A stretch of DNA of 36,118 bases from a virus. Shown here piece after piece: positions 461 through 36,118 of the stretch. How positions within the stretch are numbered: position 1 is the stretch's first letter; each line of letters starts with the position of its first letter. The notes under the pieces are model-generated. The model was not told the origin of the DNA, did no database searches, and worked only from the letters and a program-made list of their open reading frames with translations. The DNA lies in IMG/VR virus record IMGVR_UViG_3300022707_000398; one strand, written 5' to 3'. The position numbers were made by a program, and so were the translations under genes.

Positions 461-471
461 ACTTAACGCCC
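461..471 (+). promoter_or_regulatory. Early-junction motif copy 'ACTTAACGCCC'
   Basis: Starts 2 nt after the stop at 457-459 and 27 nt before the ATG at 488. The CCC...GGGG pairing overlaps SD 'AAAGGGG'. Confidence 0.6.
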
Positions 472-487
472 ATGAAAGGGGTACACC

Positions 488-742
488 ATGAAAGACGATA
501 ATTTTCCACGAAACAGAACGACACTATCAATGGACAACAACGAAATTAGCAGTGTTGCTTACGGGCCTTGCGGTGAAGAGGGTTGGGTAGTTGGTCAGAT
601 GGGTGTTGTTTCTATTCATGCTTATGATGAATTTGCAGAGCGTAGTATGGTTCCTTGGTTAGCTATTTGTTCCGAAGATAAAGTGCTTGCTAGACTGTCT
701 GCATCTGATTGCATAGTAATGTATAAAAAATCACATACTTAA
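488..742 (+). CDS. Hypothetical early protein (84 aa)
   Basis: ORF track; SD GGGG 7 nt upstream; its stop TAA lies inside the next motif copy. Confidence 0.65.
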   Translation: MKDDNFPRNRTTLSMDNNEISSVAYGPCGEEGWVVGQMGVVSIHAYDEFAERSMVPWLAICSEDKVLARLSASDCIVMYKKSHT

Positions 743-748
743 CGCCCC
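737..748 (+). promoter_or_regulatory. Early-junction motif copy 'ACTTAACGCCCC' plus hairpin GCCC-CACG-GGGC
   Basis: Contains the stop codon of 488..742 and lies 33 nt before the ATG at 770. The hairpin sequence is identical to the copy at 1-20. Confidence 0.6.
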
Positions 749-769
749 ACGGGGCAAAGGATAAATATT

Positions 770-859
770 ATGGATAGAGAAGAACAACCAGACCCAGCAG
801 TGAAATTTCTTATAATAGCAGCACTCGGCTTTTTGGCTGCGTATATGATATTCGCTTAA
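770..859 (+). CDS. Possible 29-aa hydrophobic peptide (MDREEQPDPAVKFLIIAALGFLAAYMIFA)
   Basis: My own translation (below the ORF-track size cutoff); SD AAGGA upstream; flanked on both sides by motif copies like its neighbours. Confidence 0.35.
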   Translation: MDREEQPDPAVKFLIIAALGFLAAYMIFA

Positions 860-865
860 CCGCCC
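855..865 (+). promoter_or_regulatory. Early-junction motif, variant 'CTTAACCGCCC'
   Basis: Contains the stop TAA at 857-859; followed by SD AGGAG and the ATG at 883. Confidence 0.45.
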
Positions 866-882
866 AAGGAGATAGGCTCGAC

Positions 883-1125
883 ATGACACCATTGGAAATA
901 TCAATTTTACTCCACTACTATGCAAGAGGGAATGACTTTGACGGTAAGGAACATAAGCCGCAAACTCAATTTATAAATTTTCTTGTGGGCCAAGGTATAT
1001 TGATTGAAGAATTAGCTAGTAAGCCTATTTATAAAATAACCGATAAAGGTATTATTTACGTTCAAGGCATATTGGAAGCTGCTTCTTCTGTACCTCTGCC
1101 TGTTTGGTTAATACCAAAATCATAA
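883..1125 (+). CDS. Hypothetical early protein (80 aa)
   Basis: ORF track; last gene of the rightward early arm, ahead of the terminator. Confidence 0.6.
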   Translation: MTPLEISILLHYYARGNDFDGKEHKPQTQFINFLVGQGILIEELASKPIYKITDKGIIYVQGILEAASSVPLPVWLIPKS

Positions 1126-1135
1126 CTATACGCCC
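1124..1135 (+). promoter_or_regulatory. Early-junction motif, variant 'ACTATACGCCCC' with no downstream gene
   Basis: Overlaps the stop of 883..1125 and is followed by a terminator rather than a start codon. Confidence 0.4.
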
Positions 1136-1150
1136 CTCTCATTAACCCAC

Positions 1151-1186
1151 AAAAAAGCCCCAACTTTCGAAGGGGCTTTTTCTTTG
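1151..1186. terminator. Bidirectional rho-independent terminator between convergent operons
   Basis: 'AAAAAAGCCCC-aactttcgaa-GGGGCTTTTTC': GC stem flanked by an A-run and a T-run, lying between + gene 883..1125 and - gene 1202..1504. Confidence 0.75.
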
Positions 1187-6557: not shown

Positions 6558-6687
6558 GGAGTGGGTAGCGCAGTATGGTAGCGCGTCCGGTGCACCGAGA
6601 TAATAAGAAAGAAAGTATAATTAACTTACGGAATTATTATCTTACCAGAGAGGAAGGTCGCGGGTTCAAATCCCGCCCCGCTCCCCA
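6558..6687 (+). tRNA. tRNA-like gene with canonical acceptor/D/T arms, encoded CCA, a G-1:C73 pair (His-like) and about 52 extra nt where the anticodon arm should be
   Basis: Acceptor GAGTGGG (6559-6565) pairs with CCCGCTC (6677-6683). TA precedes the D arm GCGC-AGTATGGTA-GCGC. T arm is GCGGG-TTCAAAT-CCCGC, then discriminator C6684 and CCA at 6685-6687. The 74 nt from 6586 to 6659 give no canonical 5-7-5 anticodon arm. Confidence 0.5.
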
Positions 6688-6690
6688 ATA

Positions 6691-6700
6691 ACTTAACTAC
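6691..6700 (+). promoter_or_regulatory. Weak early-junction-like motif 'ACTTAACTAC'
   Basis: Lies 4 nt after the tRNA-like CCA and 25 nt before the ATG at 6716, followed by SD GGAG. It lacks the CG core. Confidence 0.3.
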
Positions 6701-31536: not shown

Positions 31537-31567
31537 AAGGGCTCCAATTGCGGGGCTCTTTTTTTGT
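31537..31567. terminator. Rho-independent terminator between the convergent late (+) and early (-) operons
   Basis: 'AAGGGCTCC-aattgc-GGGGCTCTT' (9 bp with two G-U pairs) followed by a T-run (tttttttt). Confidence 0.65.
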
Positions 31568-31578
31568 CTGGATGGTAG

Positions 31579-31893
31579 TTATTTTTTGGGAACGTTAAGA
31601 TTACGTCCCCATCCGCTGCAAGTTACTTTAAATTCAAGATGTGATAAAGGGCCATCATCAAACTTAACATCAAAGCCGTATGATAATTCATTCTTATCAT
31701 CGCGTTTTGGTGGGTAGAACTTTCTAACGAGACATTCAGTACCGTTCTTTAATATAAAGTCTGCCCATTTGGGGGCTTCGTCTGCTATCATATCAAATAA
31801 CTGCGCGGCAACTTCATCAAGTATCCTATCAGCTTGAGATTGTGCCTCTTGCATAATAATATCATTGCCGAGATGCGTTATATTATCCGTCAT
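31579..31893 (-). CDS. Hypothetical early protein (104 aa)
   Basis: ORF track; last gene of the leftward early arm; carries a motif copy at its 3' end. Confidence 0.6.
   Translation of the reverse strand: MTDNITHLGNDIIMQEAQSQADRILDEVAAQLFDMIADEAPKWADFILKNGTECLVRKFYPPKRDDKNELSYGFDVKFDDGPLSHLEFKVTCSGWGRNLNVPKK
31588..31599 (-). promoter_or_regulatory. Early-junction motif copy 'CTTAACGTTCCC' with no downstream gene
   Basis: Reverse complement of 'gggaacgttaag'; encodes ..LNVP.. at the C-terminus of 31579..31893; followed by the stop and the terminator. Confidence 0.5.
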
Positions 31894-32308
31894 TGTCTTC
31901 TCCCGCTGCTGTTTGTTGAACGTTACCTAAATCTTCTTCCCACTGAAATTCGCGCTTACCACATTTGGCACATTCTGTTTTTCCGCTTTTTAATAGGTTG
32001 AACTTTACTGACCCGCATTCGCAGACACGGCCTTCATCGTCGTCATCGTCTGTCTTATGACCATACCATTCAACATCATCACCCATTCTTTTAACGCACC
32101 CATTAGGCGCTTCGTCACAATTTGGATAAGACGGGCATCCTAAGTGCTTGTCATCTTCTGTCATTTCATAAAGATACGATCCATCCTTAACACACGCCAA
32201 GGAATTATTAGCCAGACATTGAGCAGTATAAACTCCTTTATTTTCATCGAGCCTTACTATTGCATCAAGCGCCTCTTTATATTCGTCACGTTCTTTACTT
32301 ATTGACAT
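31883..32308 (-). CDS. Cys-rich (zinc-ribbon-like) early protein (141 aa; start moved to MSISKERD)
   Basis: The internal ATG at 32308 lies 32 nt downstream of a motif copy and has SD GGGAGAAAG. The sequence has CxxC-type pairs (CECGS...CAKCGK). The upstream 44 codons overlap the preceding gene. Confidence 0.55.
   Translation of the reverse strand: MSISKERDEYKEALDAIVRLDENKGVYTAQCLANNSLACVKDGSYLYEMTEDDKHLGCPSYPNCDEAPNGCVKRMGDDVEWYGHKTDDDDDEGRVCECGSVKFNLLKSGKTECAKCGKREFQWEEDLGNVQQTAAGEDNDG
31917..31927 (-). promoter_or_regulatory. Early-junction motif, variant 'GGTAACGTTCA'
   Basis: Lies about 35 nt upstream of the ATG at 31893, followed by SD GGGAGAAG. Confidence 0.4.
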
Positions 32309-32450
32309 TGCTTTCTCCCGGTTGTTGTGGAACGTTAAGTATTTCATAACAGTCCTCACACAGAGGCCCAAGTTCATCAATGAACAGATTATCATCTTCA
32401 CAACGTCCTGTCGGATCATCGCATTCGCAACATAATTCAATCTTTGGCAT
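32295..32450 (-). CDS. Cys-rich 51-aa early protein (MPKIELCCECDD...)
   Basis: The internal ATG at 32450 lies 26 nt after a motif copy and has SD AAGGA. There are eight Cys in 51 aa. Confidence 0.5.
   Translation of the reverse strand: MPKIELCCECDDPTGRCEDDNLFIDELGPLCEDCYEILNVPQQPGESNVNK
32329..32340 (-). promoter_or_regulatory. Early-junction motif copy 'ACTTAACGTTCC' (preceded by TATGAAAT)
   Basis: Reverse complement of 'ggaacgttaagt'; 32 nt upstream of the ATG at 32308. Confidence 0.6.
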
Positions 32451-32655
32451 TCTCAGTCCTTTCGTGAACGTTAAGTATGCTTTCAATTGCATACGTTGCT
32501 TCTTCTGGTGTGGGGAAATAATCTTTAGTAGAAAATCTCAATATGTGTCTTTCGTTACCGCTTGGTGTTGGGTGAAGTTGCATGAAAACACCTTGATATT
32601 TTCCGTCCTTTTCACCAGCGCAAGAATAGCCCTCTAGTCCACATGGATACATCAT
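32437..32655 (-). CDS. Hypothetical early protein (72 aa)
   Basis: ORF track; ATGA overlap with the upstream gene. Confidence 0.55.
   Translation of the reverse strand: MMYPCGLEGYSCAGEKDGKYQGVFMQLHPTPSGNERHILRFSTKDYFPTPEEATYAIESILNVHERTENAKD
32466..32476 (-). promoter_or_regulatory. Early-junction motif copy 'ACTTAACGTTC'
   Basis: Lies 26 nt upstream of the ATG at 32450. GTTC...GGAC pairing overlaps SD AAAGGAC. Confidence 0.6.
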
Positions 32656-32972
32656 GACCCGTCCCCTTGTTTGGGAACGTCAAGTAATTCATTATTAACC
32701 CTGAGTTTGAATTGGTTTACCGCATCACTGTCAGGAATAATTTTAGAGATATTCAATCCCGCGTCATACCAAGACCATCCCGCTATAGGGGGTAATTTTT
32801 CCTCGCCGACATAATCTCTAGTGTATAAGATAGCCATTAACGCTTCGTCCAAAGCCTCGCACAGTCGCTTGTTCTTTGTTTCAAGTTCGGTGAAGTCCTT
32901 TGATATTTCTGCCATAAGAGCTAGGCTCTCGTTGCTTGCATAAACGGCATCCTTTTCATAGTAGTTCTTCAT
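32652..32972 (-). CDS. Hypothetical early protein (106 aa)
   Basis: ORF track; SD-like GGAGAAAC upstream. Confidence 0.6.
   Translation of the reverse strand: MKNYYEKDAVYASNESLALMAEISKDFTELETKNKRLCEALDEALMAILYTRDYVGEEKLPPIAGWSWYDAGLNISKIIPDSDAVNQFKLRVNNELLDVPKQGDGS
32674..32685 (-). promoter_or_regulatory. Early-junction motif copy 'ACTTGACGTTCC' plus hairpin GTTCCC-AAACAA-GGGGAC
   Basis: Lies 30 nt upstream of the ATG at 32655. The 3' arm of the 6-bp hairpin is the SD. Confidence 0.6.
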
Positions 32973-33175
32973 TACTGTTTCTCCTGAACGTTAAGTTTTT
33001 CAAAAAACCTACATTCGTTAAAATAATTATCTAGTGGTGCGCCATTATAAGCGAAATGCAAATGTCTTAAAACTGGTGAGGGCATACTACTTCTTAACCA
33101 CATACATCTGCCTGTGGCATACTTAGCTAGTTGGTGATGTTTGCATTTTCTACAATCTTCCAGATTATCACTCAT
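32972..33175 (-). CDS. Cys/His-containing early protein (67 aa)
   Basis: ORF track; ATGA overlap upstream; 'CRKCKHH...C...C'. Confidence 0.55.
   Translation of the reverse strand: MSDNLEDCRKCKHHQLAKYATGRCMWLRSSMPSPVLRHLHFAYNGAPLDNYFNECRFFEKLNVQEKQ
32985..32996 (-). promoter_or_regulatory. Early-junction motif copy 'ACTTAACGTTCA'
   Basis: Lies 24 nt upstream of the ATG at 32972; the SD AGGAG follows immediately. Confidence 0.6.
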
Positions 33176-33342
33176 GGCTTTTCTCGATCTAATATTTTTT
33201 TACATTTAGGGCAAGTGACATTTTCATCAATTACAACCCAAGCTGATTTTTTAAGATTAATTTTCCTTGGCCTTTTAAAACAAAGTGCGGAAACATCCCC
33301 ATTAGGATTTATATGTTTTGCTTTATGATATACTTTAGTCAT
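33172..33342 (-). CDS. Zinc-ribbon-like 56-aa early protein (MTKVYHK...CPKCKKIL)
   Basis: The internal ATG at 33342 of ORF 33172..33633 lies 24 nt after a motif copy and has SD GAAGGA. Confidence 0.5.
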   Translation of the reverse strand: MTKVYHKAKHINPNGDVSALCFKRPRKINLKKSAWVVIDENVTCPKCKKILDREKP

Positions 33343-33354
33343 GGTGTGTCCTTC

Positions 33355-33366
33355 GGAACGTGTAGT
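33355..33366 (-). promoter_or_regulatory. Early-junction motif copy 'ACTACACGTTCC' (preceded by TATGAAATT)
   Basis: Lies in a different reading frame from the other leftward copies relative to the annotated ORF. In the alternative gene model it is intergenic. Confidence 0.5.
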
Positions 33367-33376
33367 AATTTCATAA

Positions 33377-33585
33377 TTAACATGGATATTCTCCATGTGG
33401 GTTACAGTTTTTACAAGGATAACCGTTATCACAATCTTCTGGCTCATTACAACCGCGACACATATCATCACAGCAGCCGTGAAACCATCCCTCTTGGTGA
33501 CGCAACCAATCCCACCAAAGTCGTCGTCATCTAATGGTCTATCACCATCATTGTCGAATGCTTCATTCCAATGTTCATCATCCAT
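33377..33585 (-). CDS. Acidic N-terminus plus Cys-rich C-terminus protein, only obtained with a -1 frame change near 33511-33516
   Basis: Frame A from ATG 33585 gives MDDEHWNEAFDNDGDRPLDDDDFGG... Frame B, open from 33526 to the stop at 33377-33379, gives ...DWLRHQEGWFHGCCDDMCRGCNEPEDCDNGYPCKNCNPHGEYPC*. See the corresponding finding. Confidence 0.3.
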
Positions 33586-34531
33586 TTTCGACCTCACTAA
33601 CGAATAGTTGTTGCAATATGTAAACAATAACATTGATCGTCCATCCGTTGCCGAGCAGCTTATAACGCTGCGTGTTGCTTACATGGTTTGTGTAGTCTTC
33701 CGGCACATTTTGTAATCTCTCACACTCGACCGGGGATAGTCTTCTTAATGAAATGTCATTATCTTTAATCCAGGCTAAGAAGTTGTTTTGTTGCCAGGAG
33801 CTTGCCGATAATGTCGGAACCTTGCCGTTAATAGCTCTTGCGCCGGCCGGGTTATTCCCTCGACCGATGAAATGTATAAATGTAGTGCCGCTATCAAGTG
33901 ACAATTGCCCTGAATTATTTTTGGTGTTTAGCGTGCCGGTCTTGTCCGGGCTTATTCTTTTTATTGCTGTATTTGAAATTATCAAACTGCTGCAATCCTG
34001 TTCGTGGTCAACAATATCTTTAAGCAATATTCCTGTATCTTCTGGCTGATTGAAAGCCCAATTCGCCCAGTAATACCGTTTTCTATTTTGTGCACTTACC
34101 AGTGATGAATTTATCAAAACTGGCTGAACTCCAAGATATTCACTTATTATGTCCCTACTTCTCCCGGTCATTTTGACATTCTCTAATAAGAATTTAATGC
34201 CCGGGTTAAGCTTCTTAATATGTTTCCATATGTCCACAAAAACAAAGAATAGCTTACTTCGTACATCATCAAACTCAAGCTGCAACCCGGAAAAACTGAA
34301 GCCCTGACAAGGCGACCCGGCAATAAGTAAGGATATACTTGACCAGTCAATATCCCATTCCCGCCAATTCAAGATATCCCCTAATTGTATAGTACCCGGG
34401 TAATTAGCTTGTGTGACGATGTTCGCATACTGATCAATTTCGCTTGAATAGTATTTATCAACCTTAATCCCTGCTCGATCGAGAGCAAGCGCACCACATG
34501 ACATGCCGTTGAATAAAGAAAGGACGTTCAT
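33578..34531 (-). CDS. DNA (cytosine-5)-methyltransferase, orphan
   Basis: Motif I 'LSLFNGMSCG', IV 'GSPCQGFS', VI 'LENV', VIII 'SAQNRKRYYW' and X 'LLGNGWT' in canonical order. No adjacent restriction endonuclease candidate. Confidence 0.85.
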   Translation of the reverse strand: MNVLSLFNGMSCGALALDRAGIKVDKYYSSEIDQYANIVTQANYPGTIQLGDILNWREWDIDWSSISLLIAGSPCQGFSFSGLQLEFDDVRSKLFFVFVDIWKHIKKLNPGIKFLLENVKMTGRSRDIISEYLGVQPVLINSSLVSAQNRKRYYWANWAFNQPEDTGILLKDIVDHEQDCSSLIISNTAIKRISPDKTGTLNTKNNSGQLSLDSGTTFIHFIGRGNNPAGARAINGKVPTLSASSWQQNNFLAWIKDNDISLRRLSPVECERLQNVPEDYTNHVSNTQRYKLLGNGWTINVIVYILQQLFVSEVENG

Positions 34532-35046
34532 AGCTCTGCCTTTGCAATACGTCTTATAGTAGCCTCAGACGTGCTATATTTAGCCGCCAGCTCACCAATA
34601 TCCATATTATCATCAACGAGTGCCTGAATTTGTTTTGCGTGCTTCCACACCTTTGATTGTGGCTTTCCTGAGTTATTCTTACCCATTTTAGCAACCCGCT
34701 CTTTCATGGCTTTCTCAATTTCCATACAAGCGTCATAGTTCTTTTTAGCTTCTTCATAAGTAAAATCATACAGTGTATCGGTCTTAATGCTGTAGATACC
34801 TTGTGCGCCAACCTCGGCTACTGCTAGGCTCACTTTGGGCCACCAATTTTTACCTATAATAGCTATTGAATAAACAACCAACACGTCATCGGCATGCCGT
34901 AAGTCTTCAAGCGCGGCGTTCAATGCAACATACTTACTATCGTCTTCATGTATTGTATTGCAACCGTATTCATCAAGTGTTTTTCGCTGTACGCTTTTAA
35001 TCGGAACGTCCGAGTTTTTTTCTACAAAGCCTATTTTATGTGTCAT
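34528..35046 (-). CDS. Resolvase/invertase-fold protein lacking catalytic residues, with C-terminal HTH
   Basis: 'MTHKIGFVEKNSDVPIKSVQRKTLDEYGCNTIHEDD...ADDVLVVYSIAIIGKN' aligns by eye with serine-recombinase 'GYARVSTxxQ...Q...L...G...IFxD...GDxLVVxxLDRLGR'. R-V-S-T is replaced by E-K-N-S and DRLGR by IAIIGK. The C-terminus 'IGELAAKYSTSEATIRRIAK' is HTH_7-like. Confidence 0.6.
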   Translation of the reverse strand: MTHKIGFVEKNSDVPIKSVQRKTLDEYGCNTIHEDDSKYVALNAALEDLRHADDVLVVYSIAIIGKNWWPKVSLAVAEVGAQGIYSIKTDTLYDFTYEEAKKNYDACMEIEKAMKERVAKMGKNNSGKPQSKVWKHAKQIQALVDDNMDIGELAAKYSTSEATIRRIAKAEL

Positions 35047-35078: not shown

Positions 35079-35115
35079 TTGACATTACTTTATGACAATG
35101 CTAATAATATGTCAA
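35079..35115. promoter_or_regulatory. Overlapping divergent sigma70-like promoters with inverted-repeat operator
   Basis: Rightward: TTGACA (35079-35084), 17 nt, TAATAA (35102-35107). Leftward: TTGACA (35115-35110), 17 nt, TAAAGT (35092-35087). The two -35 boxes form the inverted repeat TTGACAT...ATGTCAA, with a third half-site ATGACAA at 35092-35098. Confidence 0.55.
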
Positions 35116-35130
35116 TACTAATTATGAAAT

Positions 35131-35151
35131 ACTTTACGCCCGTTATCGGGC
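35131..35151 (+). promoter_or_regulatory. Early-junction motif copy 'ACTTTACGCCCG' plus hairpin GCCCG-TTAT-CGGGC in the 5' leader (preceded by TATGAAAT)
   Basis: Lies downstream of the predicted rightward promoter and 36 nt before the ATG at 35167, so the element is expected to be transcribed. Confidence 0.55.
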
Positions 35152-35166
35152 ACAGAAAGGGAAACC

Positions 35167-35526
35167 ATGTTAAATAAAGAAGAAAAGAAACGTATCAAGA
35201 CGTTAGAGGACAAATTAGATGCTACCGATAAGTCTGTGGGTGATCGTCTTAACAAAGCTATGATCGTTGAAATGCAGAAAATACAACAGGAAGAGTTAGA
35301 TAAAAGCAATAAGGAAAAGCTAGACACTGTAAAACGTATGGTTAAATCTGTACTGGCAGAAAGTGGCGTTGTTGACGTTATTGAGGCACAATTTAAACGC
35401 TTCTTAGATGATGCTATGGAGCACGGCAACGACGAGGGTTATAGTAGACATTCCTCTATGCGTTATGGGGGTAGTCATAAAAAAGAAGAATTTAATTATC
35501 CGTCACTAAACGATTTATTTAATTAA
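35167..35526 (+). CDS. Coiled-coil early protein (119 aa)
   Basis: ORF track; SD AAAGGGA; first gene of the rightward early arm. Confidence 0.65.
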   Translation: MLNKEEKKRIKTLEDKLDATDKSVGDRLNKAMIVEMQKIQQEELDKSNKEKLDTVKRMVKSVLAESGVVDVIEAQFKRFLDDAMEHGNDEGYSRHSSMRYGGSHKKEEFNYPSLNDLFN

Positions 35527-35527
35527 T

Positions 35528-35549
35528 ACTTAACGCCCGATGTGGGGCG
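35528..35549 (+). promoter_or_regulatory. Early-junction motif copy 'ACTTAACGCCC' plus hairpin CGCCC-GATGTG-GGGCG
   Basis: Starts 2 nt after the stop at 35524-35526. It is followed by the tRNA-like gene rather than a CDS. Confidence 0.55.
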
Positions 35550-35598
35550 GCGTGGAAAGTGGACACGCTTAGCAAAGTGATTAACCGTCATATAGCTA

Positions 35599-35690
35599 AA
35601 TAATGTAGCTCAGAGGATAGAGCAGCTTTCGAAATCTTTGTGGTGAAGAAAATAGTCAGTGTGTCATGGGTTCGAGTCCCATCATTATAA
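35599..35690 (+). tRNA. tRNA-like gene with canonical D and T arms, an AT-only acceptor stem (A1-A72 mismatch), no encoded CCA and a 41-nt central region with no canonical anticodon arm
   Basis: Acceptor AATAATG (35599-35605) / CATTATA (35683-35689). TA precedes the D arm GCTC-AGAGGATA-GAGC. T arm is ATGGG-TTCGAGT-CCCAT. The 41 nt from 35625 to 35665 are about 19 nt more than a class I tRNA needs. Confidence 0.45.
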
Positions 35691-35698
35691 ATAGCAGG

Positions 35699-35708
35699 AT
35701 TAACGCCC
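35699..35708 (+). promoter_or_regulatory. Early-junction motif, variant 'ATTAACGCCC'
   Basis: Lies 9 nt after the tRNA-like element. It is followed by CCCCACATCG (35712-35721), the inverted complement of CGATGTGGGG (35538-35547). Confidence 0.45.
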
Positions 35709-35730
35709 TGCCCCCACATCGTAATCTATA

Positions 35731-35740
35731 ACTTAACACC
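35731..35740 (+). promoter_or_regulatory. Early-junction motif, variant 'ACTTAACACC'
   Basis: Lies 20 nt upstream of the ATG at 35751, followed by SD GGAG. Confidence 0.4.
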
Positions 35741-35750
35741 GGAGAATATC

Positions 35751-35972
35751 ATGTTTAAGTGGTATAAAAAAAGACAAAAGAAAAAGATTAATGATATAGC
35801 AAATGCCGTTGTGCAAAAGCTCCATGACCAACAAGGATGGCACAAGTTTTTACCTCCTGTTGCAATGAGAGATAAGATTTATATGGTCACAGAAAACGGC
35901 TCAATCTATTGTCTGTATTATGATGAAGTGCAACGAACTGAAATGGTGATGAAAATCACAGAAATAAATTAA
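35751..35972 (+). CDS. Hypothetical early protein (73 aa)
   Basis: ORF track; SD GGAGAA. Confidence 0.6.
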   Translation: MFKWYKKRQKKKINDIANAVVQKLHDQQGWHKFLPPVAMRDKIYMVTENGSIYCLYYDEVQRTEMVMKITEIN

Positions 35973-35974
35973 TC

Positions 35975-36118
35975 ACTAAACGCCCCACGGGGCAGGGAGA
36001 ATATAAAATGGAAATAGATGAAAAAACATTTACGGCTGTAAGAGATAGCCAAAAGATACTAGCTGAATATATTGTGCCAAATAGTGGTATTTCAGACCAT
36101 AATGTTATTAGTAGGTTA
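35975..36118. repeat. Terminal direct duplication, copy 2 (identical to 1..144; includes a truncated second copy of CDS 34..459 from 36008)
   Basis: See copy 1. Confidence 0.9.

Follow-up and report, generated by a model that had tools for sequence, protein, structure and literature searches.

A candidate cassette joint repeated in both divergent early arms of a P22-like podophage

A repeated joint between early genes

We found a short repeated element, here called the joint, at almost all gene boundaries in both early arms of a viral genome (IMG/VR record IMGVR_UViG_3300022707_000398; the whole stretch that was analysed, 36,118 nucleotides (nt), is referred to as the window). The rightward arm runs from position 35131 across the circular junction to 1125, and the leftward arm from 35046 down to 31579. 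When related phages are compared, the joint is kept unchanged while the genes between its copies are wholly replaced, and to judge from the sequences it looks like a swappable connector of early genes. The reading that we favor, with a probability of roughly 0.5, is that it is a joint between cassettes which is transcribed, works in cis at the RNA level for the cistron that follows, and marks sites of exchange. A short earlier note on this DNA (the original prediction) had described a transcribed punctuation element, distinct from a promoter, at cassette boundaries in both arms, and this view appears to be supported. The placement of the left-arm copies within open reading frames (ORFs), in a fixed frame, is absent from that note.

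The accessory genes that phages express early (host take-over, anti-defence) turn over very fast, and their exchange is poorly understood outside T4-type phages. Here, at least eight related genomes or contigs have retained a joint of 10-11 nt while all the genes between copies have been replaced. For a small podophage, the joints define a unit of exchange concretely enough to be tested, and they offer a sequence handle for locating hypervariable early-gene islands in metagenomes. The left arm has an unusual design: the last codons of nearly all its ORFs contain a nucleotide signal in a fixed frame. If the ACG-YY core of the joint is read by a host RNA factor, the joint would represent a novel cis-acting signal in polycistronic expression. 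If the adjacent serine recombinase reads it, the joints would belong to a new kind of cassette system.

Enrichment of the joint

All copies that the original prediction listed exist: 35131 (ACTTTACGCCC), 35528 (ACTTAACGCCC), 35698/9 ((G)ATTAACGCCC), 35731 (ACTTAACACC), 35975, which equals position 1 (ACTAAACGCCC), 461, 737 and 855 (CTTAACCGCCC). Two of its coordinates were slightly off, although the copies themselves are present: the one placed at 1124 starts at 1125, and the one placed at 31588 lies at 31590-31600 on the minus strand. An extension shared by the two arms, TATGAAAT, is found as proposed at 35123-35130 and at the left-arm copy at 32340.

The enrichment survives a background-corrected motif scan in each of three forms. 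The exact 8-mer ACTTAACG has six copies in the window versus 0.86 ± 0.89 expected, a count that none of 100 shuffles reached. An 11-mer with at most two mismatches occurs 18 times versus 7.1 ± 2.7 expected. A generalised pattern derived from relatives, AC[TC][TA]N[AT]CG followed by TT or CC, has 13 matches in the window, and 12 of the 13 lie on the sense strands of the early arms, where 1.0 is expected and which make up 7.8% of strand positions (binomial P = 6e-13). The weaker look-alikes suggested at 6691, 7532, 8077, 9231 and 29573 do not hold up. They are at chance level (35 versus 25 ± 5.4 at no more than one mismatch), since the early-arm copies account for the excess.

Conservation in relatives and exchange of genes

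Megablast of the early region and short-query blastn with one joint found no match among GenBank phages, and in IMG/VR the exact joint 19-mer and three early or neighbouring proteins retrieved no relatives. Near-identical contigs of the window occur in JGI 3300022690 and Logan SRR7467837, but at 99.9-100% identity they have no comparative value. Related contigs (numbered with the prefix L) were reached through homologues of the genes flanking the arms in a collection of 5.8 billion proteins. A metagenome scan with a degenerate joint 20-mer gave two true relatives, the short contigs L007 and L010; its other hits, L008, L009 and L011, were chance matches or unrelated.

One of the contigs, L003, is a sister phage whose replication and lysis blocks are 83-89% identical to the window at the nucleotide level. 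The approximately 6 kb between these blocks in L003, which comprise both early arms, have no blastn, blastp or tblastx similarity to the window except for matches of 20-51 nt at the joints. On its right-arm strand, L003 has seven strong copies of ACTTAACGCCC (or ACTAAACGCCC) together with weaker internal and terminal variants, and on its left-arm strand five copies of ACTT[AG]A[CT]GTTC, so the split into arm-specific forms is the same as in the window. The element also occurs in L012, L016, L017, L020, L007 and L010, and L019 has a diverged right-arm form (AAGACGCCC / AACGCCC, with hairpin). It was not found in L004-L006 and L018, which have homologous neighbouring genes but not homologous arms and which were used as controls. 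Two further controls, L013 and L015, lack the left-arm motif and retain two or three AACGCCC-hairpin joints.

The boundaries of homology coincide with the joints. In an alignment of three phages, the right end is homologous from the terminal copy (ATCACAACTATACGCCCCTCTC...) onward, and no sequence upstream of this copy aligns. At the left end, homology extends outward from the terminal copy, and the sequences on its inner side are unrelated. The sole cassette common to L012 and L016 loses its homology on the 3′ side exactly at the box, as we call the conserved sequence of the joint. The proposed exchange of cassettes at these boundaries is supported by the sequences, in that gene replacement between sister phages starts and stops at copies. 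Moreover, one joint variant, ACTWAACGCCCCACGGGGCA, recurs in four phages, where it flanks five gene pairs that are all different, and upstream box forms occur with downstream tail and ribosome-binding-site (RBS) types in many combinations. The arm-specific dinucleotide, TT in the left arm and CC in the right, is kept across phages.

Right-arm joints

The conserved core of the right-arm joints is RACGCCC, most often as ACTTAACGCCC, and it starts between -10 and +4 nt from the upstream stop codon. As the original prediction held, the TAA within the motif is in some cases the stop itself (ORFs 488-742 and 770-859), and the remaining right-arm ORFs end 0-10 nt ahead of it. The box stands upstream of a distinct Shine-Dalgarno (SD) sequence, at a broad range of distances from the ATG (16-53 nt); for the right-arm core, the distance to the next ATG is 24-53 nt.

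A hairpin is common at these joints. Among 33 distinct right-arm joints pooled over the relatives, 16 have a GGGC 3-8 nt after the GCCC. When the downstream 25 nt were shuffled, with the exact GGGC complement required, the mean was 0.67, and none of 5000 shuffles reached 16. A permissive test, which admitted any stem and allowed G-U pairs, gave a weak signal only; the specific GGGC test on the larger set is more informative. The hairpin loops (4-7 nt) are of at least 11 different, unrelated kinds, for example CACG, UUAU, GAUGUG and GGAA. At the fifth position, which closes the loop, 10 of 15 aligned joints can pair, by four types of pair; this weakly supports the stem. The prediction of conserved hairpins therefore stands as to enrichment across relatives, but they occur in only about half of the right-arm joints and their covariation is weak. 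In five more joints, the CCC pairs with the GGGG of the SD region, and the rest run directly into the SD sequence.

The hairpins named in the original prediction exist and are the predicted minimum-free-energy (MFE) structures. MFE folds leave the box ACUUAAC unpaired. The right-arm hairpins have predicted stems of 4-5 bp and lack a U-run, and a terminator scan flagged none of them. They are present in leader and internal copies and absent from terminal copies, which suggests a service to the downstream cistron. The variable loops argue that the joint acts in a single-stranded form, most likely as RNA, in the right arm. An Rfam scan of the window, L003, L007, L010 and L012 gave no match at the joints, and only two tRNA-like genes scored.

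Some cassettes between joints are non-coding: a tRNA-like gene in the window, a structured RNA in L010 and a tRNA-Thr gene in L019. The L010 cassette (positions 1-265) is a non-coding stretch of about 200 nt with a perfect closing stem of 21 bp, located between two right-arm joints. Its MFE is -99.9 kcal/mol (z = -5.6) and it has no Rfam match; the folding suggests that it may be a structured RNA carried as a cassette.

The two tRNA-like genes of the window are at 6559-6684 and 35599-35690, both on the plus strand. They have inserts of 63 and 30 nt, respectively, in the anticodon arm, Rfam scores of 44.7 and 39.6 bits and no ARAGORN call. The former folds well (z = -3.5) and the latter does not (z = 0). 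The sequence ACTTAACT lies 7 nt past the 3′ end of the gene at 6559-6684, and the insert of this gene contains AACTTACGG, which resembles the box. An additional box-like copy is in frame in the final codons of the 119-amino-acid (aa) ORF, at 35505-35512 on the plus strand (TCA CTA AAC GAT, encoding SLND). It sits 23 nt before the second right-arm joint and has a design like that of the left arm. The 29-aa ORF at 770-859 escapes ORF lists with a cut-off of 40 aa.

Left-arm joints

The left-arm box is AC-N4-CG-TT(C/A), and its copies (ACNNNNCGTT) are embedded in the last codons of the upstream ORF. Five forms recur: ACTTAACGTT, ACTTGACGTT, ACTACACGTT, ACTATTCGTT and ACCAGACGTT. Each junction in the window from the methyltransferase gene onward has a copy or a degenerate copy.

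All 20 strong left-arm copies, from five phages, lie within a long upstream ORF and share one reading frame (xxA CTT AAC GTT), and no read-through in the other two frames was seen. The box stands 6-17 codons ahead of the stop codon, which overlaps the next start. Nearly all left-arm ORFs consequently end in [L/P][N/D/H/F/Y]V plus a hydrophilic tail of 5-14 aa that encodes the next SD sequence. The valine codon is GTT in all real copies but one (GTA, in L017), and the third position of the leucine codon is T in every LNV or LDV copy. Third codon positions are as conserved as the others, so there is constraint at the nucleotide level even though the frame is fixed. In four to five left-arm joints the ORF ends before the box, and translation of the box is thus not obligatory. 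Control arrays of overlapping small ORFs without the left-arm motif (L013, L015 and L006) have no conserved tail or junction sequence.

Around position 33501 (minus strand), the window lacks 7 nt, GGCCTTT, relative to L001, an otherwise identical JGI contig. The deletion shifts the frame of a small left-arm ORF and fuses two ORFs into an apparent ORF of 153 aa (33172-33633). It could be either a natural variant or an assembly error.

Promoters and terminators

The two best sigma70-like sites lie at 35079-35115, in agreement with the proposal that both arms diverge from a single promoter region. The copy at 35131 was expected to lie downstream of the promoter, in the leader, and does so in the window. 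A first right-arm copy with its hairpin is likewise found downstream of a sigma70-like promoter in L003 and, by eye, in L012 and L020. At the other extremity, the final copy of each arm directly precedes a terminator-like hairpin in three phages, which supports the proposal that a downstream ORF is not needed. The hairpin at the end of the right arm has a loop too long for the terminator scan. Promoter scans found no -35/-10 pair at the copies and no excess of promoters in the arms; only the divergent pair scores 10-11 of 12. Promoter-like sites at the copies are no more frequent than by chance, and the copies are therefore not variants of a sigma70 promoter.

The promoters of the window overlap face to face within an imperfect palindrome (TTGACAT...ATGTCAA, 35079-35115), and the early transcripts would therefore overlap at their 5′ ends. 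In L003, L012 and L020, the promoters are arranged back to back around TTGACAATGTCAA. The regulatory region thus differs by a rearrangement between sister phages.

Proposed function

The joint could be a clade-specific, orientation-locked boundary module between promoter-less accessory cassettes, i.e., small ORFs and a few small RNAs. Two divergent early operons are probably read by the host RNA polymerase from promoters of the sigma70 type, and the joint would be transcribed within the polycistronic early RNA. It comes in two arm-specific designs. In the right arm, the order is the stop codon, a single-stranded box (A)CTTAACG or AGACG, a GCCC-loop-GGGC hairpin in about half of the cases, the SD sequence and the ATG. 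In the left arm, the box AC-N4-CG-TT(C/A) is set in a fixed frame within the last 6-17 codons, with the stop overlapping the next start. The unpaired box and the GC hairpin near the 5′ end might prepare the start of the next cistron, either because the 5′ end is defined or protected or because the joint supplies a standard ribosome-binding context. A host or phage factor may read the ACG-YY core.

The joint is the likely site of swapping, because it is the only sequence common to otherwise unrelated cassettes. General recombination between related phages might then exchange cassettes at the joint, and suitable proteins may be available: a YqaJ-type exonuclease is encoded beside a conserved 215-aa protein, and L012 has RecT at that place. 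The 215-aa protein may be an annealing protein. In the left arm, the fixed frame would serve as a compatibility standard, in which any upstream ORF fits any downstream tail and RBS module. Such a frame would be needed because an ORF and a tail that meet at the box have to end together on the start codon that overlaps the stop.

Several observations weigh against a cis-acting RNA joint at which cassettes are exchanged. The left-arm joints have no consistent hairpin, and those that lie inside ORFs do not suit a simple endonucleolytic cut, which would truncate the upstream ORFs. In the right arm, the four core pairs of the stem are invariant and leave minimal covariation, and the energies of the hairpins in the window taken by themselves are only mildly better than those of shuffles (z from -1.2 to -2.3). 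The broad spacing between box and ATG argues against a rigid contact with the ribosome, and the terminal copies have no downstream cistron to serve. As to exchange, the cassette common to L012 and L016 has its 5′ breakpoint off the joint, about ten codons inside the ORF. The core AC....CG plus TT or CC is also shorter than what general homologous recombination needs or conserves, which suggests a specific reader.

Two rival explanations place the signal in DNA. The joints could be stoperator-like duplex sites, at which a phage regulator blocks or modulates elongating RNA polymerase according to orientation and shuts off the early arms. The box is asymmetric, keeps a single orientation relative to transcription in both arms, lies at gene boundaries and has a copy just past the promoter, and these traits are hallmarks of the stoperators of cluster A mycobacteriophages (PMC9283540). 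Additionally, the first left-arm gene encodes a protein with a helix-turn-helix (HTH). However, a site bound as a duplex would have no use for a hairpin of variable loop length and sequence, the copies occur only in the accessory arms instead of genome-wide, none overlaps a -35 or -10 in the window, and the fixed frame is left unexplained. The box is also identical in the window and L003, although their HTH proteins differ greatly (26% identity over 74 aa, E = 0.21). The annotation of window proteins revealed no repressor/integrase module and no tyrosine recombinase, and there was no integrase match among the early proteins. We therefore regard a stoperator role as unlikely. In a different proposal, the joints are crossover sites of the small serine recombinase that heads the left arm. 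The early arms would then be a phage-borne, integron-like platform, in which the dinucleotide TT or CC gives polarity and prevents recombination between the arms, the frame is fixed by joining at a single nucleotide, and the window phage has lost the active enzyme. An intact PF00239 resolvase is indeed the first left-arm gene in L003, L012, L019 and L020, there are n+1 sites for n cassettes, and the core has sharp bounds, with the parts before and after CG assorting independently. Precise joining would require the fixed frame and fits the conserved dinucleotide, and the commonest box, ACTTAAC, matches the integron inverse-core pattern RYYYAAC. Yet the window homologue is catalytically degenerate, as neither the GYARVS serine motif nor the DRLGR residues are present in it and Pfam gives no resolvase match, while the joints of the window are equally conserved. 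Moreover, there is no dyad symmetry around the core, the box variants ACCAGAC, ACTACAC and ACTATTC do not fit RYYYAAC, and the only shared cassette has its 5′ breakpoint elsewhere. We consider this platform, with the joints as its crossovers, decidedly improbable.

Other explanations place the signal in RNA, protein or promoter. In an antitermination system of the nut/boxA kind, the box would recruit Nus factors or an N-like protein would bind the hairpin, and the polymerase would become resistant to Rho and terminators. This would fit two divergent early operons that each have a leader-proximal copy, comparable to nutL and nutR of lambda, and a box followed by a GC hairpin whose GCCC/GGGC stem and following A are as in lambda boxB. 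CUUAAC also resembles the CUUUAAC part of the rrn boxA. But CUUAAC is all that is common: the joints lack the GCUC part of boxA, and the sequence upstream is AU-rich. Given at least 11 variable loops where boxB function needs a specific one, 8-10 copies per arm instead of one, left-arm copies that lack hairpins and are inside ORFs, no evident arginine-rich N-like protein among the early ORFs and no Rfam match, we find antitermination very unlikely. The left-arm copies could instead be primarily a C-terminal peptide motif, [L/P][N/D/H/F]V, such as a degron or cleavage site, with the nucleotide likeness to the right arm being secondary. Every read-through copy is in one frame and some changes are synonymous (AAC to AAT, GTT to GTA, CTT/CTA), which speaks for this explanation. 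It is nonetheless highly improbable in view of the conservation of third codon positions, the occurrence of the same nucleotides untranslated in the right arm and in four to five left-arm joints, and the chemical heterogeneity of the residue before V (N, D, H, F, Y). Finally, each copy might be a weak or phage-specific promoter that produces monocistronic early transcripts, in keeping with the regular position of copies 16-53 nt before start codons and the AT-rich sequence upstream. We give this very little credence: the copies are not promoters, because they have no -35/-10 pair, follow good sigma70-like promoters in the leaders, precede terminators at the ends of the arms and lie within ORFs in the left arm. 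A promoter for a phage RNA polymerase was rejected as well, as no phage RNA polymerase or sigma factor was detected in the annotation of window proteins and terminal copies precede terminators.

Three narrower ideas about the box were dropped. Pairing of ACUUAAC with 16S rRNA (7 nt, with complementarity to GUUAAGU, which is conserved, and to the ‘epsilon’ target in helix 17) is not significant for a 7-mer, and other variants of the box are incompatible with it. Sequestration of the SD sequence by the CCC or UUCC end of the box applies to only some of the joints. A site AACGTT for a methyltransferase or restriction enzyme is inconsistent with the variants, which break the palindrome.

Features and genomic context

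The window corresponds to a circular genome of 35,974 bp, as its last 144 bases are identical to its first 144 (terminal redundancy). It belongs to a P22-like podophage, with a head and ejection module that includes the large terminase, portal, major head protein, head-closure protein and ejection protein. By the portal protein, the closest isolates are Pseudoalteromonas phage H6/1 (37% at the aa level) and some Vibrio phages (~37%). The element was not found in Pseudoalteromonas phage H6/1. Family searches gave no assignment for the small ORFs of either arm. Positions are collected in Table 1.

The 55-kb contig L020 (Logan SRR31655999_16951) also holds an integrase-like gene and several HTH_3 repressor-like genes. 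On this evidence, the clade may include phages that are temperate or integrated, and these would be a possible route to the host.

Table 1. Joints, cassettes and regulatory features of the two early arms (window coordinates)
Feature	Position	Strand	Basis or remark
Rightward early promoter, sigma70-like, TTGACA-18-AATAAT, 11/12	35079..35108	+	Best promoter-like site in region
Leftward early promoter, sigma70-like, TTGACA-17-TAAAGT, 10/12, facing the rightward one	35087..35115	-	Promoter scan
Joint R1, leader: box ACTTTACG and hairpin GCCCG-TTAT-CGGGC; ATG at 35167	35131..35151	+	MFE -11.6, z -2.3
Cassette ORF, 119 aa, no family	35167..35526	+	ORF and family search
Joint R2: ACTTAACG and hairpin CGCCC-GATGTG-GGGCG, 1 nt past stop 35524-35526	35528..35549	+	
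tRNA-like non-coding cassette between R2 and R3, 30-nt insert in anticodon arm	35599..35690	+	Rfam tRNA score
Joint R3: GATTAACGCCC, 8 nt after tRNA-like gene, without hairpin	35698..35708	+	
Degenerate joint R4: ACTTAACACCG, ATG 35751 20 nt downstream	35731..35741	+	
Cassette ORF, 73 aa	35751..35972	+	
Joint R5 (1-19 past the wrap): ACTAAACG and hairpin GCCC-CACG-GGGC	35975..35993	+	
Cassette ORF, 141 aa	34..459	+	
Joint R6: ACTTAACGCCC; CCC weakly pairs with GGGG of SD region	461..482	+	
Cassette ORF, 84 aa; stop is the TAA within joint R7	488..742	+	
Joint R7: ACTTAACG and hairpin GCCC-CACG-GGGC	737..755	+	
Full cassette between R7 and R8: 29-aa hydrophobic ORF (MDREEQPDPAVKFLIIAALGFLAAYMIFA); stop is the TAA within R8	770..859	+	Called gene in L001
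Joint R8: CTTAACCGCCC, SD directly after	855..865	+	
Final right-arm cassette ORF, 80 aa	883..1125	+	
Terminal right-arm joint ACTATACGCCC, no hairpin; L003/L012 homology begins here	1125..1135	+	
Terminator-like hairpin GCCCC-N10-GGGGC with T-run, end of right arm	1157..1185	+	By eye; conserved in relatives
First left-arm gene, degenerate resolvase/invertase homologue with C-terminal HTH (phrog_125)	34528-35046	-	No GYARVS serine motif
Left-arm joint ACTATTCGTTA, final codons of methyltransferase gene (..LFV..)	33598..33608	-	
Left-arm joint ACTACACGTTC	33356..33366	-	
Left-arm joint ACTTAACGTTC, in frame (..KLNV..) in 67-aa ORF	32986..32996	-	
Left-arm joint ACTTGACGTTC, in frame (..LLDV..)	32675..32685	-	
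Left-arm joint ACTTAACGTTC, in frame (..ILNV..)	32466..32476	-	
Left-arm joint ACTTAACGTTC, TATGAAAT before it, in frame (..ILNV..)	32330..32340	-	
Degenerate left-arm joint AGGTAACGTTC, in frame (..GNV..)	31918..31928	-	
Terminal left-arm joint TCTTAACGTTC, in frame (..NLNV..), terminator-like hairpin next	31590..31600	-	
Terminator-like hairpin between late operon and left-arm end	31537..31560	.	Scan

Comparison with known systems

The intercistronic RNase III sites in the early operon of T7 are long, irregular hairpins of about 20 bp or more. Like the joints, they are structured elements between early cistrons of a transcript made by the host polymerase, and both plausibly give defined, stabilised mRNA ends. 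However, the predicted stem of the joint is only 4-5 bp and follows a conserved single-stranded box.

In integrons, promoter-less, co-oriented cassettes are moved by the tyrosine integrase IntI at attC sites, which have R″/R′ cores and a hairpin with extrahelical bases. The joints are similar in that the cassettes share one promoter, the boundary element lies at the 3′ end and often includes the stop codon, structure is conserved more than loop sequence, and a recombinase gene is adjacent. By contrast, the joints come with a small serine recombinase, degenerate in the window, instead of a tyrosine integrase, and no integrase match was found among the early proteins of the window. They also lack paired R″/R′ cores and a hairpin with extrahelical bases: although ACTTAAC fits RYYYAAC, no GTTRRRY partner follows the hairpin.

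Lambda-type nut sites have a boxA with the consensus CGCUCUUA / GCUCUUUAACAA and a boxB with a GNRA-like loop, at one site per operon. The joints do not have the boxA consensus, the specific boxB loop or the restriction to a single site per operon. A literature search with the motif strings returned only primers, and found the motif in no phage context.

The stoperators of cluster A mycobacteriophages are duplex-DNA sites of a monomeric immunity repressor in temperate phages; they occur genome-wide and also act as promoter operators (PMC9283540). The joints share with them an asymmetric site that is oriented with transcription and located in short intergenic spaces, although left-arm copies are in ORFs. 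They differ in being confined to the early accessory arms and in their hairpin potential. Moreover, in the window none of them overlaps a -35 or -10 as an operator would, and no such repressor was seen there.

In appearance, the closest analogues are the SAS and ESAS repeats of cluster K mycobacteriophages. SAS is a 13-bp sequence, GGGATAGGAGCCC, that includes the SD core, at a distance of 3-7 bp from the start codon (Pope et al. 2011, PMC3203893). Both kinds of element are short, asymmetric repeats in a single orientation that occur only with non-structural genes, at gene starts and sometimes over the upstream stop. Both stand beside unrelated genes, and approximately half of the copies have an added inverted repeat with a variable spacer. 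Their sequences are unlike, however, and the box of the joint lies upstream of a separate SD sequence, is bound more to the end of the upstream gene and has two arm-specific forms. The joints also flank the wholesale replacement of cassettes.

The closest analogue in role is the promoter-early stem-loop (PeSL) of T4-type phages, in which repeated modules between ORFans mediate modular shuffling (Arbiol et al. 2010, PMC2839356; Comeau et al. 2014, PMC4122927). PeSLs combine a strong sigma70 promoter with an effective terminator stem-loop, such that each ORFan is its own transcription unit (PMC2839356, PMC4122927). In both systems, short intergenic stem-loop modules are repeated between the stop codon and the SD sequence or ATG of hypervariable small early ORFans, and the breakpoints of insertion, deletion and replacement coincide with the modules. 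In contrast to PeSLs, the sequence scans found neither sigma70-like promoters at the joints nor a terminator stem-loop; the predicted hairpin is of 4-5 bp without a U-run, and the cassettes are co-operonic. In addition, one arm of the window has the repeat inside coding sequence and in a fixed frame. As far as these sequence features go, the joint belongs to neither PeSL nor SAS/ESAS, and is a kindred element of different build.

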